Positions 4,149-17,739 of a DNA stretch of 21,441 nucleotides are shown here, piece after piece. The DNA lies in IMG/VR virus record IMGVR_UViG_2695420728_000017; one strand, written 5' to 3'. Made by a program: the position numbers and the translations under genes. The notes beneath the pieces were generated by a model. The model had not been told where the DNA came from. It saw only the letters and a list, made by a program, of their open reading frames with translations, and did not search any database. This stretch comes from a virus (taxonomy: Duplodnaviria; Heunggongvirae; Uroviricota; Caudoviricetes). Every line of letters starts with the position of its first letter. The first letter of the stretch is position 1.

Positions 4149-4576
4149 AGGTGATTCTCCAGACGAAGACCCAGAACACCGGCAATCTCTTCCAGCACCT
4201 TGCGCTCTTCCGGCTCAATTTCGCCGTCTGCCTCCGCAATGGCCACCGCCACATCCAGCACATCTTCCGCTTCACGCGTATCGTGTTTCACATCCTCAAT
4301 CTCGCGTAACGCGGCACGACGACCAATTTTAAAATTGGTATCCAGCTGACCGATAATGGTTGCGCTAATCGCATTAATTTCCGAGGTAAACGCAGACAAC
4401 GCAGGCTGATTACGTAAGACCTGTTCGATCTTCGCTTTCTCGGATGCCTCGCATTCACCATCTGCATAGGCCACCAGGTATGCAGCGTTAATCACCGCCT
4501 GTGCCAGATCGCGTTTCTCAAACTTTTTAATTTCCGCTGCCGCTCTGCGGGTTTTCTTTTTGAAGATTCCAAACAT
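4145..4576 (-). CDS. TerB-family (tellurite-resistance TerB-like) protein
   Basis: Internal ATG at 4574-4576 preceded by AAGGAA RBS gives a 143-aa protein MFGIFKKKTRR...; paired acidic motifs (AYADGECEASEK and AEADGEIEPEER) match TerB architecture. The ORF-track 24-codon N-terminal extension (GTG at 4648) lacks an RBS. Confidence 0.65.
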   Translation of the reverse strand: MFGIFKKKTRRAAAEIKKFEKRDLAQAVINAAYLVAYADGECEASEKAKIEQVLRNQPALSAFTSEINAISATIIGQLDTNFKIGRRAALREIEDVKHDTREAEDVLDVAVAIAEADGEIEPEERKVLEEIAGVLGLRLENHL

Positions 4577-4708
4577 CGTGACGTTCCTTTGGGTGGGTGA
4601 GCCAACGCCCGGGAGCGATCTGCCCACAGAGAAAGTCACACTGACCACTCCGTAAGCTCACCCCCGAAAGGCTCTGTGGTTGATATGCGCCGGGCGTGGC
4701 GCAGATAC

Positions 4709-4732
4709 AAAAAAGGCCCGCCGAAGCGAGCC
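4709..4732 (-). terminator. intrinsic terminator just 3' of the tRNA cluster
   Basis: On the minus strand: 7-bp stem GGCTCGC/GCGGGCC (one G-U) with UUCG tetraloop followed by TTTTTT (plus-strand A-run 4709-4714). Confidence 0.45.
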
Positions 4733-4745
4733 TGGAAAATAAGTG

Positions 4746-4822
4746 TGGCGCGTTGTAGTGGAGTCTAACCACTGACCGATTGCTTAGAAGGCAATTGCTC
4801 TGTCCGACTGAGCTAACAACGC
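4746..4822 (-). tRNA. argO: tRNA-Arg (anticodon TCT, decodes AGA/AGG); atypical T-loop
   Basis: 77-nt cloverleaf by hand: acceptor GCGTTGT/ACAACGC, D-arm GCTC/GAGC, anticodon stem ATTGC/GCAAT with loop CT-TCT-AA, T-stem AGTGG/CCACT, encoded CCA. T-loop is TTAGACT (A at position 56 instead of C). Third position in an Ile-Arg-Arg trio as in Stx-phage ileZ-argN-argO. Confidence 0.6.
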
Positions 4823-4835
4823 ATGATGCTGATAA

Positions 4836-4912
4836 TGGACCGCCATCGGGGACTTGAACCCCGCGCAGCCAGCTTCGAAGGCTGGCGCTCTGTCCCGATG
4901 AGCTAATAGCGG
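4836..4912 (-). tRNA. argN: tRNA-Arg (anticodon TCG, decodes CGA/CGG)
   Basis: 77-nt cloverleaf: acceptor CCGCTAT/ATGGCGG (one G-U), D-arm GCTC/GAGC, anticodon stem CCAGC/GCTGG with loop CT-TCG-AA, T-arm CGGGG-TTCAAGT-CCCCG, encoded CCA. Confidence 0.75.
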
Positions 4913-4921
4913 TATGTAATA

Positions 4922-4997
4922 TGGTGGCCCTTGCTGGATTTGAACCAGCGACCTGGCGATTATGAGTCGCTCGCTCTCACCACTGAGCTAAAGGGCC
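4922..4997 (-). tRNA. ileZ: tRNA-Ile2-like (anticodon CAT, lysidine type; close to ileX/ileY)
   Basis: 76-nt cloverleaf: acceptor GGCCCTT/AAGGGCC, D-arm GCTC-AGTGGTGA-GAGC, anticodon loop CT-CAT-AA, T-arm GCTGG-TTCAAAT-CCAGC, discriminator A, CCA. Near-identical in layout to E. coli ileX as I recall it. A CAT anticodon alone cannot exclude tRNA-Met. Confidence 0.8.
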
Positions 4998-5025
4998 GAG
5001 CCAAAAAATAATAATCAGATGAAAA

Positions 5026-5739
5026 TCAATAATCAAGCCCTTGCCTGGATACATATCTGTCTGGCGGGAAGCCATAATAGCGGTGAAATACAGAAATAAA
5101 GTAGGACCTGCTTGAATAACCGCATTTTTCTGCTATAGCCTGTCCATATCCATGCCGGGAACATAACATATTTACAGCAACACGCATCCGCTCTTCCAGC
5201 AACAAGCGACTGAACATGCCCCCTTCATTTTTCAGTTTTGTCTTTAACAAACTCTCACTCATATGCAACTGTAGAGCAATCGCACCAAGCGTCCAGCTTG
5301 CTGATATATCTGTCTGAATTATCGCCCTGACTTTGGCACTTATGCTGGATAAACATCCACTTAAAAACAATGACATCCGTTCATCTGTTTCAAACAGAGA
5401 CAGGCAGGCCATCATAAGAAACATATCCGTGGCCTCTCCGGAAAATCCCTGGCTGGTAATTAAAGCCGCAGCCAACGCAGGATTGTTGGGTTCCAGCAAC
5501 AGGTAAAGCGGAATGTCAGTCAGACGAGTCCTCGTCAGCTTATGCTGACTTTCCAGATATTGACTTACGACGGATTCGCTTATATCGACAATTTTAACTT
5601 TGCCATAATGCATAAGGAAAAGCTCCCTGATGCATTTGGTGGCCAGAACAACTGAGCCTGGCTTAAGTGACAACGTATCCTTTTCAAGAAAAATATTAAT
5701 TGGGGAGCAAACCATGATAACTGAACAGACAACAGCCAT
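5026..5739 (-). CDS. AraC/XylS-family transcriptional regulator (prophage moron; AppY/PatE-like class)
   Basis: 237-aa ORF; C-terminal dual HTH region (…AIALQLHMSESLLKTKLKNEGGMFSRLLLEERM… and …GYSSRSYFISVFHRYYGFPP) is typical of AraC family. Stop lies 28 bp upstream of the tRNA-Ile 5' end. Confidence 0.75.
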   Translation of the reverse strand: MAVVCSVIMVCSPINIFLEKDTLSLKPGSVVLATKCIRELFLMHYGKVKIVDISESVVSQYLESQHKLTRTRLTDIPLYLLLEPNNPALAAALITSQGFSGEATDMFLMMACLSLFETDERMSLFLSGCLSSISAKVRAIIQTDISASWTLGAIALQLHMSESLLKTKLKNEGGMFSRLLLEERMRVAVNMLCSRHGYGQAIAEKCGYSSRSYFISVFHRYYGFPPDRYVSRQGLDY

Positions 5740-5873
5740 TATAATTTTACTTTCATTAGCAATTGGTTAGCTCAATTATAGCCCCAAAAGGTAAATTATC
5801 ATCAACACATAAGCAAAGGACTGACAGGTGTCGCCCCCCCACCAGCCGCCCATTCACCACAAATAAAAAGCCT

Positions 5874-6071
5874 TCAGGACTGAAGGCGTCTGTAACAACC
5901 GCACTGATAGTCTGCCAGACCCGCCATAACAAGCTGGGTCAGTATTAACTGGCAGCGTTCGCGTGAAAGGTAAGTATTCTGCGCAATCTCCCCGACTGTC
6001 GCCGGTTCGGTGACGCTTAATTCATCAAACACAACTCTGGCGGTTTCTGTCATATCCTGCTGTTTCAGCAT
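5874..6071 (-). CDS. small putative DNA-binding protein (65 aa, HTH/winged-helix-like)
   Basis: ATG at 6069-6071 with AAAGGG about 8 nt upstream; the segment TVGEIAQNTYLSRERCQLILTQLVMAGLA resembles a recognition-helix region. Family not recognised. Confidence 0.3.
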   Translation of the reverse strand: MLKQQDMTETARVVFDELSVTEPATVGEIAQNTYLSRERCQLILTQLVMAGLADYQCGCYRRLQS

Positions 6072-6349
6072 GTCTTTTTACCCTTTCCGGTTAACGTGAC
6101 ATACCAATAACTCTTGTCTAAAAAGCCAGCAAGATAAAAAGCCAGTATTCACGACCACCAGCGTGTTTACTGTACTGCACCAGGTTTACAGGTACAAAAA
6201 AACCGCTCAGCGGCGGGTTTAAGTTGTGTGGCGAAGTAACCACTCTTAACACACTAATAGCATTTTTGTTATAACACAAGTAGCTCATTCAGTATTTTTA
6301 GAATCTTGACTTTCTTAAGCACGGAGAACTCTGAATACCAAACATAAAA

Positions 6350-6968
6350 TCAATTATCTTCCAGGCCGGATGCTATCAACGAAAGCCTCTCAAAAAACGC
6401 TGTAGCAGCCTTGTCCAAAGTTGAATAAGTACTGTATTCTCCGTGTTCGGGACCAACCACTACCCATGGTCGTCTTTTTGGGATTCGGGACTTCTCAGAA
6501 ATCACTGTTCCAGATATACCAATATCAATTGTTACACCTGTTATTATTTTCTCTTCATCTCTTTCCCTGAACTCAATTGCCATAAATGCCGTTTTTTTTT
6601 CGTTTCCCGTTTTTAAAAAAATCAAATAAAGCAAAGCGATGCTCATTAAAATCAACACCCCATCGTCCTTCAGGATAAAGGGCATGAAAGTTGTCATTTA
6701 CGCTCTGCATCGTCTCATAAGCTTTAACTTCTAAATCTCCATAGTGCATAGATACCGCGCAGGAGTCACTGGGTAACTGTATTTTCCCAAGATTGAAAAC
6801 CTTTACTGCTCCAGAACTATGGCATCTTGCCCGCAATTTATCCCCATTTATACTAATCGGAGAAATATTCCTTAATGTTCCGGGCTGGCTCCCTCCTAAG
6901 TAAACGACTGTTAAAGATTGCTTATTTTCAATTGCATCAACTAATACATGCTCTACATTTTTATCCAT
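6350..6968 (-). pseudogene. frameshifted gene of unknown function (possible WYL-like fold); frames switch at an A9 homopolymer
   Basis: ATG at 6966-6968 with GGGAGG RBS 7 nt upstream. The N-terminal frame (126 codons, ends TGA at 6573-6575) and the C-terminal frame (continues to 6350) overlap at 6573-6697 and are joined by a 1-nt shift at the T9 run 6592-6600 (A9 in the mRNA). Deleting one A gives a continuous ~206-aa protein. Confidence 0.5.
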
Positions 6969-7043
6969 AATAACCTCCCAATGAACAGGTATCATCAGGA
7001 GGTTATTATAAAATATGATTATTTACTTTGATTGAATTTATTA

Positions 7044-7415
7044 CTATATGTAACAATCAATTTCTAAAGATACCCCCAACATTGCCAGACAACCGTCAAT
7101 AAACCCTTCAGCTTTCTGCAGTCTGATAACAACCTGATTAAGTGATATCCCCAGTTTTACCCCCAACGCCCGTAATGTAACCCCATACACATAATACATT
7201 TCCAGTAATTCGTATTGATACGGTTCCTTTTTCTTAAGAACTGTCATCGCAGAGCTAATGATCAGGCCATCGTCATCGCTACATTGCGGGCGGGATTTTA
7301 CTTTCGAAGGAATTAATCCCTTAAAACCTGCAGCAACAGATGACCATTCCACATCCTCGTGATTATTTGCCACCCATGCCCCCCAACGTTCAAGAACCAT
7401 TTGAATATCACGCAT
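7044..7415 (-). CDS. late-gene antiterminator Q (lambdoid Q family, QuuD-like)
   Basis: ATG at 7413-7415 with GGAGAAAG RBS gives 123 aa starting MRDIQMVLERWGAWVANNHEDV, which matches my recollection of DLP12 QuuD. The ORF-track start at 7430 is a TTG with no RBS. Confidence 0.8.
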   Translation of the reverse strand: MRDIQMVLERWGAWVANNHEDVEWSSVAAGFKGLIPSKVKSRPQCSDDDGLIISSAMTVLKKKEPYQYELLEMYYVYGVTLRALGVKLGISLNQVVIRLQKAEGFIDGCLAMLGVSLEIDCYI

Positions 7416-7432
7416 CAACTTTCTCCACAAAA

Positions 7433-8428
7433 TCAGGCCAGCACGCCTATTGCCAGCGCACGATCGATAAAACGAAATATCAGCTCCAGCTGGGAGCCAT
7501 ACTTCTCTTCAAATGCCACGGTATCCGCATGCAGCTCGTCGTGATGCTTTCTGCACAAAGGCAACACAAAGAGGTCATGCGCTTTTGTAGCCATTCCACC
7601 CTGACCGTGACCTATCAGGTGGTGGGGATCATCAGCAGGCTTTCCACAACATGCGCACGGCTGCGTCTTAACCCAGCGCGTGTACTTTTCATTAACCCAG
7701 CGGCGACGTTTTGGGCGTAACATAAAAGACTCCGGCGACTCCGGATCCACTTTCAGCGCCAGCACCTTTTTTGCCTTATCCTGGATGATGCTGGTGGCAG
7801 GAACCGAAGGCACAAGGTCACTTTCCCGGGTGACAGACGGCACAACAGGCTTTGGTAATCTCAGTGCCTTACGGGCTGCACTTTCCGGTAAGACATCCGC
7901 CAGGTCATTACGAATCAGCCACCAGCACAGTTCCGGCATTGTCACAACGTGACTATCATCAAAACCGAGATCCCGACGCACAACAGACAACACCCAGCGG
8001 GCACAGTTATCCGTTGCCATTGATTCCAGTCGTTCCGTGAACTGATCGCGCAGCTGGTTATCGCAGTGCCAGCACAGACGGATTGCGCCCGGCGCGTGCC
8101 GCATTGTTGTCATGTTCTCGCTGTGCCAGTCGGAATGAGGCCACTGGCAGCCTTTTTCACGAAGTAACCAGCTTTCAAGACATTCCACGCCACCAGCACG
8201 ACGGATCACTGCCTCATTGCGGAACACGGCCCGAACGGCAGGATCATCCGCCAGCGGTTGTGATGCCGCCGGTACGGCACCACTGGCGAAAGATGAATAA
8301 CGTTCCGGCTCAGGCTCCAACAGGACACGCCCCTGCATAAACAGGGGCATCAGCTCTGAACCTGGTCTGAACAATACGATCCCCATACGCGGGGCAATTT
8401 CAGGGGTCAGTAGTGCTCTCACGGTCAC
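7433..8428 (-). CDS. DUF968-family prophage protein (YdfU-like; C-terminal Cys/His HNH-like motif)
   Basis: 331-aa ORF, GTG start abutting the upstream stop; C-terminus QPCACCGKPADDPHHLIGHGQGG…CRKHHDELH. Typical position between rusA/kilA-N and Q. Confidence 0.5.
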   Translation of the reverse strand: MTVRALLTPEIAPRMGIVLFRPGSELMPLFMQGRVLLEPEPERYSSFASGAVPAASQPLADDPAVRAVFRNEAVIRRAGGVECLESWLLREKGCQWPHSDWHSENMTTMRHAPGAIRLCWHCDNQLRDQFTERLESMATDNCARWVLSVVRRDLGFDDSHVVTMPELCWWLIRNDLADVLPESAARKALRLPKPVVPSVTRESDLVPSVPATSIIQDKAKKVLALKVDPESPESFMLRPKRRRWVNEKYTRWVKTQPCACCGKPADDPHHLIGHGQGGMATKAHDLFVLPLCRKHHDELHADTVAFEEKYGSQLELIFRFIDRALAIGVLA

Positions 8429-17372: not shown

Positions 17373-17739
17373 ACAGAACGAAAAATCTATCGCTCAAATT
17401 GCTGAGTATATCCCGCGTGCGTGCCGGGGTATGCAGTTGCAGGAAGCCAAAGCACGCCTGGAGAAAAAAATTGCGCTCTATATCGATGACGGCTGTGATA
17501 CTGCCGTTCTTAACGCGGCGTTCGCGCCAGCTCTTAACAGTCATACGCGAGAGTCTTTTTTTTCGTGCATCGCAGCGCAGATCCGCAAAGGAGGCAGCCA
17601 GTGAGTAGGTTCGTAAGGTTACAGATACGTATATCTGAATAATTAAATTCAGTTCTGTAAATAAAATTTAATCCTTAACCGGAGGGATTCCTGCACCCTC
17701 AGAACATCAGGAGACCGCCCGAAAGGGCGGTAATGAAAA

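Follow-up and report, generated by a model that had tools for sequence, protein, structure and literature searches.

A WYL-domain accessory gene of an Escherichia coli prophage, probably disrupted by slipped-strand expansion of an adenine tract

The 21,441-nucleotide (nt) sequence of IMG/VR virus record IMGVR_UViG_2695420728_000017, a member of Caudoviricetes, is referred to here as the window. Positions 6350–6968 of its minus strand contain a prophage accessory gene that is divided between two reading frames. The gene is very probably a frameshift allele, in which a heritable slipped-strand insertion of a single base has extended a tract of eight adenines (A8) to nine (A9), and the normal form of the gene is a single open reading frame (ORF) of 205 codons. 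The best reading of this change is the slipped-strand pseudogenisation of a dispensable moron. Frameshift alleles of this kind are ordinary and have been described before, and the gene of the window is a new instance only. The parts of the disrupted gene are the following.

Positions 6350–6968, minus strand: the whole frameshifted gene in its A9 form; the intact prophage accessory gene has 205 codons, for a predicted WYL domain and a predicted α/β C-terminal domain.
Positions 6573–6968, minus strand: ORF1, 131 codons and a stop codon, encoding the normal residues 1–125 followed by NGIYGN and the stop.
Positions 6592–6600, minus strand: the A9 run (T9 on the plus strand), a +1 expansion of the A8 tract in CGA AAA AAA ACG, which encodes Arg123-Lys124-Lys125-Thr126.
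Positions 6350–6583, minus strand: the downstream frame, 77 codons from an internal ATG at 6583–6581, encoding the normal residues 129–205.

ORF1 opens with the ATG at 6968–6966 and closes with the TGA at 6575–6573, and the second frame, which is offset from the first by one base, extends to a stop codon at 6352–6350. The junction of the two frames is the T9 run, which becomes A9 in the mRNA. It is the only homopolymer of nine or more bases in the window, in which the next longest runs are T8 at 17556–17563 and C7 at 5834–5840. Deletion of one A from the run creates an ORF of 205 residues. Its product has the same sequence as WP_000360285.1, a RefSeq protein found in the annotation of other E. 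coli genomes, and matches phrog_8498 over its full length (205/205 residues, E = 2.9e-126). An earlier note on this DNA had described a gene of approximately 206 residues that is split at the only long homopolymer and is fused again by the removal of one A; the description is accurate in all its coordinates, with a fused product of 205 residues. The internal ATG is positioned 5 nt upstream of the TGA of ORF1, and the two frames overlap by 11 nt (6583–6573). In the genome NZ_CP148374.1, the annotation pipeline PGAP lists ORF1 as the "WYL domain-containing protein" WP_249439678.1 and the 77-residue frame as WP_235837343.1.

As judged from the copies of the gene that were compared, the A8 tract with a single ORF is the ancestral or normal state, and A9 is a minority state. 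A megablast search of 5,426 complete E. coli genomes identified the gene in 52 of them. Forty-seven contain an intact A8 copy, one (NZ_CP148374.1) contains A9, and four contain A8 together with the nonsense codon K119*; the length of the run was read directly in a subset of these genomes and was inferred for the remainder from a 240-nt alignment span and a single annotated coding sequence (CDS). The span of 240 nt is shared by 51 of the 52 genomes, and those that were fetched have A8 and a single 618-nt CDS encoding WP_000360285.1 or a near-identical variant. A scan with a pattern of variable run length identified 41 A8 copies and one A9 copy in IMG/VR and seven A8 copies in JGI/ENA metagenomes, so that A8 is present in 48 of the 49 contigs. 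The same type of scan returned no match in the GTDB species-representative genomes, and the DNA of the region had no match among 50,697 deposited phage genomes. Exact-protein look-ups across approximately 15 billion proteins provided the following counts of contigs encoding the product of each allele.

A8, intact product of 205 residues: at least 1000 contigs, plus 92 in which it is called as 214 residues.
A9, product of 131 residues: 39 contigs from NCBI, ENA and Logan assemblies, plus 35 in which it is called as a longer product of 140 residues.
A7, product of 140 residues: 19 contigs, plus 18 in which it is called as 149 residues.
A6, product of 130 residues: 1 contig.
K119*, product of 118 residues: 90 contigs.

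Products of A5, A10, A11 and A12 were present in none of the contigs covered by these look-ups. The exact 77-residue downstream product was encoded by 169 contigs.

The assemblies compared with the window identify A9 as a genuine allele rather than an assembly artefact. Errors of long-read sequencing classically fall at homopolymers, and several A9 or A7 assemblies (loci L067, L069, L070 and L076) are visibly noisy, with many other indels, and have been discounted. It could be argued that the A9 of the window is such an error, and that the true genome has A8 and an intact gene. This is highly improbable, because the A9 product is encoded by the tens of contigs from three sources listed above, and because the run is the sole indel that distinguishes the clean A9 assemblies and the window from their A8 relatives. 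The closest A8 relative of the window, the IMG/VR locus L027, differs from it by one mismatch and one gap in 5,764 nt. Since this only gap is the run itself, the window is free of general homopolymer noise. Apart from the run, the window has no indel relative to loci L004, L005, L027 and L071, and it differs by one mismatch over 14,968 nt from CYAF01000026.1 (GCA_001285745.1), which shares A9. The clean A9 assemblies have no further indel relative to A8 relatives over 3.7–6 kb. The sequencing indel that had been offered as one of the possible causes of the split is therefore not borne out.

The A tract is, by comparison of haplotypes, a recurrent hot spot of insertions and deletions, with A9, A7 and A6 alleles distributed over several haplotypes. 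The haplotypes were defined from the gene and 76 nt upstream of it in contigs encoding the A9 and A7 products. The haplotype of the window, which has A9, is shared by copies with A8 and A7. The A9 allele is present on at least three clean haplotypes or prophage mosaics: the lineage of the window, locus L068, which has a different immunity, methyltransferase and lysis set, and locus L073, which has a DnaB/DnaC-type replication module. The A7 allele is present on at least four haplotypes, including the prophage L079 with a quite different head and terminase module. Several clean loci, L068, L081 and L082 among them, are distinguished from an A8 relative by the single gap at the run alone. The slipped-strand instability that was proposed for the tract in the earlier note is thus substantiated as recurrence of A6, A7 and A9 alleles.

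A T8 run at 17556–17563 on the plus strand, near the 3′ end of a gene for a hypothetical 79-residue protein, provides a control from the same prophage. This run is intact in 400 contigs, T9 in one and T7 in none, which is a crude comparison, since contigs are not independent events and the gene starts differ between callers. The comparison suggests that the WYL gene retains frameshift alleles more easily than the control run does. The greater persistence fits a gene that is dispensable, or one whose loss is sometimes favoured. The K119* allele represents an independent inactivation of the WYL gene. It results from a change of AAA to TAA in codon 119, equivalent to approximately positions 6612–6614 of the window, and the A8 tract is retained. 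The four complete genomes with this allele are CFSAN029787, RMDEC332, RMDEC364 and VL46, and it is found in loci L056 and L057 (NZ_CP011416.1 and NZ_CM177021.1), which belong to a different prophage mosaic. The downstream ORF of 77 residues that is left by the K119* alleles is the same as that left by A9.

The family to which the protein belongs is encoded in one piece. A HMMER scan of 1.84 billion cluster representatives detected 487 relatives at E ≤ 1e-3, nearly all of which are 180–230 residues long and aligned in one stretch over residues ~5–195; the short entries look like fragments. Homologues in which the two halves are always separate genes, as envisaged in the earlier note, are not what was found. 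An alignment of 80 sequences contains an N-terminal conserved block formed by Y23, G25, G26, P29, G30, R33, P37, A47 and K56, and a second conserved motif, FKNGKxxK, in which K119, G121 and K125 are at least 90% conserved. The A run encodes K124 and K125 within this motif; position 124 differs in most family members.

The structure of the protein was modelled with AlphaFold2 on the family alignment (pLDDT 86). The model has two domains, and its features indicate a ligand-binding barrel of the WYL (Sm-like) type at the N-terminus and an α-β5-α domain at the C-terminus. The first domain (residues 1–65) is composed of a helix followed by a β-barrel, and the second (residues 87–202) of a helix (87–97), five strands (104–107, 111–115, 129–133, 168–171 and 178–181) and a final helix (184–202). 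The frameshift is positioned between strands 111–115 and 129–133 of the C-terminal domain. A location of the break in the linker between the domains was considered and rejected, because the model places it inside the C-terminal domain. One extra A therefore breaks, inside a conserved folded domain, a gene that is intact in 47 of the 52 complete genomes, as expected for the pseudogene that was among the options of the earlier note.

The Pfam WYL profile (PF13280) matches residues 8–64 of the protein with 16.5 bits, below the gathering cut-off of 21.8. However, 31 of the 80 family members match the profile at E < 0.01, and two longer relatives exceed the cut-off (24.3 and 22.3 bits). The profile of the family matches the WYL domains of DriD, CapW and BrxR in the PDB with E values of 1e-4 to 1e-2, and the Sm-like five-stranded barrel of the model can be superimposed on solved WYL domains. 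The resemblance to a WYL fold, which had been put forward as speculation, is thus supported by the fold, whereas the sequence match alone stays below the Pfam cut-off. In its first ~65 residues, the protein has the WYL/Sm-like barrel and the signature Y-GGS-PG-R-I-P in common with the regulators CapW, BrxR, DriD and PafBC, which have the arrangement winged helix-turn-helix (wHTH)-WYL-WCX and control defence or DNA-damage genes. Unlike these regulators, the protein does not have an N-terminal wHTH: none was detected in the Pfam scan or in the model, and the WYL domain begins at residue ~1–8. The scan against NCBIfam produced only a spurious glutaredoxin match, and PADLOC only weak matches to WYL-type Cas-associated proteins (E 1e-3 to 7e-3), so that the gene is not classed as a defence gene. 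A search for fused domains in longer relatives (P0110, P0092 and others) returned nothing above threshold except WYL, and a fold search of the BFVD viral structures returned no significant full-length match. Relatives with 39% and 32% identity are encoded by other phages, one before the lysis cassette and the other between tail genes and a Rha-family gene. By its positions in these genomes, the gene behaves as a phage moron.

The position of the break bears on whether the A9 allele could be a split gene, with two ORFs that are translated separately and reassemble into a functional two-chain protein. The internal ATG 5 nt upstream of the ORF1 stop codon, and the overlap of the frames, make termination-reinitiation conceivable, and the breaks in the independent A9 and K119* alleles are no more than 13 codons apart, with an identical 77-residue ORF left in both. 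However, the chance probability of two breaks falling within 13 of 205 codons is roughly 0.13 by our estimate, no well-placed Shine-Dalgarno (SD) sequence was found ahead of the internal ATG, the cut falls inside a β-sheet and the most conserved motif, and no homologue among the 487 representatives is naturally split at this point. A functional two-chain protein is scarcely credible in view of these features.

The formation of the A9 allele and its consequences may be described as follows. The A8 tract would exist as AAA codons for the conserved Lys124-Lys125 of FKNGKxxK in an AT-rich gene, and the hot spot would be a side effect of this. The GC content is 37–40% over positions 6200–7400, in comparison with 52–58% further upstream. 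Replication slippage on the tract, as suggested by its sequence and the recurrence of the alleles, would add one A. Translation of the A9 mRNA would stop six codons past the run, at 6575–6573, and the gene would be genetically OFF in the window. The 131-residue product would retain an intact WYL barrel and, from the C-terminal domain, the initial helix and strands one and two; the last three strands and the final helix would be missing. Reinitiation of the 77 codons at the internal ATG is possible. The full-length protein could be produced only by reversion to A8, by slippage of RNA polymerase (−1 A, or +2 A with an extra Lys), or by ribosomal +1 or −2 slips. The A9 allele would represent a loss of function with low-level leaky rescue. 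Leakiness through RNA-polymerase slippage is plausible, but probably small.

On nine A or T, slippage of the bacterial RNA polymerase is efficient, and most events add bases, in decreasing proportions (Atkins et al. 2016, PMC5009743). In one study, no deletion-type rescue by the E. coli RNA polymerase was detectable on the poly(A) runs tested there (Koscielniak et al. 2018, PMC6260861). Alleles in which a frameshift mutation has turned an A8 run that is not slippery into a slippage-prone A9 have been described as "pseudo pseudogenes"; they arise from single mutations and differ between isolates (Baranov et al. 2005, PMC1088944). The allele of the window resembles this class in having an intact A8 orthologue, a one-A insertion that creates A9, a disrupted ORF and a strain-specific occurrence. 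In the published cases, however, rescue was modelled by the insertion of one or two A's, whereas here the addition of one A is of no help. Because only −1 or +2 A restores the frame, rescue is expected to be weaker than in the Baranov class. The tssM gene of Citrobacter rodentium is also a prematurely interrupted enterobacterial gene, in which slippage yields length variants; there, rescue is reported to be experimentally proven and functionally required (PMC4256274), whereas the allele described here is known from sequence only.

Programmed transcriptional slippage or recoding, in which the A9 allele would provide both the truncated WYL protein and the full-length protein, as in Thermus dnaX and Shigella mxiE, is very unlikely. 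Runs of the length of A9 are prone to slippage in bacteria (PMC1088944, PMC5009743), the WYL barrel is intact in the modelled truncated product, and, by our reading, a −1 shift on the in-frame heptamer A_AAA_AAA of the intact A8 allele could give the same 131-residue product. The Thermus thermophilus dnaX A9, the Shigella mxiE T9 and the A9 of insertion sequence (IS) elements (PMC5009743) likewise place nine A or T where two frames meet within a coding sequence. By contrast with those sites, whose homologues keep both the length of the run and the arrangement in two frames, A9 with two ORFs is here the minority state, the A8 one-ORF form dominates, and a homologue with 39% identity encodes K-K-K as AAG AAA AAG, without a run. 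A stretch of 106 nt surrounding the run folds at −4.3 kcal/mol (z = +2.0), so that it has less structure than shuffled controls and provides no stimulatory element. Rescue would need −1 or +2 A, whereas +1 events are the favoured ones, and the model places the break within a domain. Because the usual form is A8 with a single ORF, the run is missing at 39% identity, and RNA structure flanking the run is absent, programmed slippage is not supported; the transcriptional slippage suggested in the earlier note is likewise not supported as a programmed or conserved mechanism.

On the heptamer of the A8 allele, either a −1 ribosomal shift or a transcript with one additional A would lead to the 131-residue product of the A9 allele. 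The heptamer is probably incidental, since the extension in the −1 frame differs in length in an allele with 72% identity and there is no stimulatory structure.

The recurrence of the indels raises the possibility of a contingency locus, in which the A tract is an adaptive switch between A8 (ON) and A7 or A9 (OFF) under fluctuating selection, for example by phage attack or prophage induction. Near-identical prophages are polymorphic from A6 to A9, haplotype 1 alone includes A7, A8 and A9, and +1 and −1 events have each occurred on several haplotypes. Variants are commoner than at the control T8 run of the same prophage, and the independent nonsense allele indicates that loss of function is tolerated or favoured. 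The allele with 72% identity retains A8 (AGA AAA AAA ACA) despite synonymous changes of the flanking codons. However, more than 90% of copies are A8, and the tract is short in a host, E. coli, that is proficient in mismatch repair. In cells with mismatch repair, the mutation rate of such short tracts is lower by orders of magnitude than that of classical contingency tracts. The AAA AAA codons would be explained by the conservation of lysines, the tract is missing in the homologue with 39% identity, K119* inactivates the gene independently of the tract, and the counts of contigs are not counts of independent events. The phase-variable genes of Campylobacter (PMC1088944), Neisseria and Haemophilus resemble the WYL gene in having a coding homopolymer with +1 and −1 variants in close strains that switch an ORF. 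They differ from it in that here the tract is short, the host repairs mismatches, more than nine-tenths of copies are ON, and the tract is probably accounted for by conserved lysines. A switch is therefore unlikely. In its most extended form, with a standalone WYL sensor switched in a prophage of a mismatch-repair-proficient enterobacterium, perhaps in connection with phage defence or counter-defence, the K119* allele would fix the gene in the OFF position, slippage of RNA polymerase would keep A9 a leaky OFF state, and the truncated product would perhaps act as a dominant modulator; this is equally doubtful.

Several points weigh against the reading of the A9 allele as a slipped-strand pseudogene. 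Nine A's are the length from which RNA-polymerase slippage is generally accepted to occur, and the OFF state may therefore be leaky. The excess of frameshifts over the T8 control, together with K119*, could mean that inactivation or switching has been selected for and that the gene has not simply decayed neutrally. The frequency of the A9 allele is approximate, roughly 2–5%, since the intact count is a lower bound. Some of the A9 and A7 assemblies are noisy long-read assemblies, and the contig counts overstate the number of clean observations; moreover, the evidence for A9 in the window comes from assembled sequences and not from raw reads of its own source.

The features around the slipped-strand allele are the following.

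Positions 6974–6979, minus strand: the SD sequence GGGAGG, 5 nt upstream of the ATG at 6968.
Positions 6964–7012, minus strand: a 21-base pair (bp) hairpin, the 5′ arm of which contains TATAAT (7010–7005) and the 3′ arm the SD sequence and the AUG.
Positions 7044–7415, minus strand: the gene for the Q antiterminator of the Q21 family, immediately upstream, identified by homology search.
Positions 6192–6214, minus strand: a hairpin and T-run resembling an intrinsic terminator, GCCGCTGAGCGGT TTTTTTGTAC, approximately 135 nt past the stop codon of the gene.

The gene is AT-rich, is the first ORF after Q, and has the GGGAGG ribosome-binding site (RBS) at 6979–6974, all as initially described. The TATAAT at 7005–7010, which had also been pointed out, is present; however, it has no acceptable −35 element in a consensus scan, and it lies in the arm of the 21-bp hairpin that pairs with the RBS. 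The hairpin (7012–6964) has a folding energy of −26.9 kcal/mol (z = −6.7), and none of 200 shuffled sequences was as stable. The most common haplotype has TATTAT in place of TATAAT, and the allele with 72% identity (L059) has TACAGT at this site and retains an SD-masking hairpin of different sequence (−18.9 kcal/mol, z = −4.3). A single-nucleotide polymorphism (SNP) at −11 (U to C) converts a G·U pair to G-C, according to our reading of the fold. Rather than being a simple −10 box, the element may mask translation in transcripts that read through from Q, or may act at the DNA level as a palindrome resembling an operator.

The Q protein is short (123 residues), belongs to the Q21 family and matches PDB entries 6JNX and 6P18 (E = 2.6e-10), and Pfam Phage_antitermQ is recorded for the Q gene in related loci. 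The paper on pR′ (PMC6266700) gives no promoter sequence for Q21-type phages. Expression of the WYL gene in the lysogen would be possible if the gene were placed between pR′ and the corresponding terminator, tR′. On the downstream side of the gene, the minus strand contains an ORF of 65 residues (5874–6071) with its own terminator (5887–5870), followed by a gene for an AraC-family regulator (5739–5026) and three tRNA genes (4997–4749; Ile, Arg and Arg in the annotation of a near-identical genome). Genes for TerB and DUF3927 come after the tRNA genes. A search of positions 4500–8000 against Rfam identified only the three tRNAs and one sub-threshold match. The layout of the region resembles the late region of a Stx phage, without stx and with a string of morons.

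The identification of the A9 allele has a direct consequence for annotation: the PGAP proteins WP_249439678.1 and WP_235837343.1 are the two halves of one gene that has been disabled by a homopolymer indel. The gene also illustrates cleanly, from nature, how indels can recur at an A8 tract in prophages of E. coli, more often than at a control run of 8 nt. The family of the intact protein, with approximately 490 cluster representatives, is uncharacterised; it combines a standalone WYL domain with an α/β domain and occupies accessory positions in the phage contexts examined. According to the titles of PDB entries and PMC11662680, the WYL domains of CapW and DriD bind single-stranded DNA (ssDNA). 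Given this sensing of ssDNA by the WYL domains of CapW and DriD, a phage WYL protein without a DNA-binding domain may merit testing as a sensor or decoy. If such a role is true, the repeated natural knock-outs of the gene become informative.
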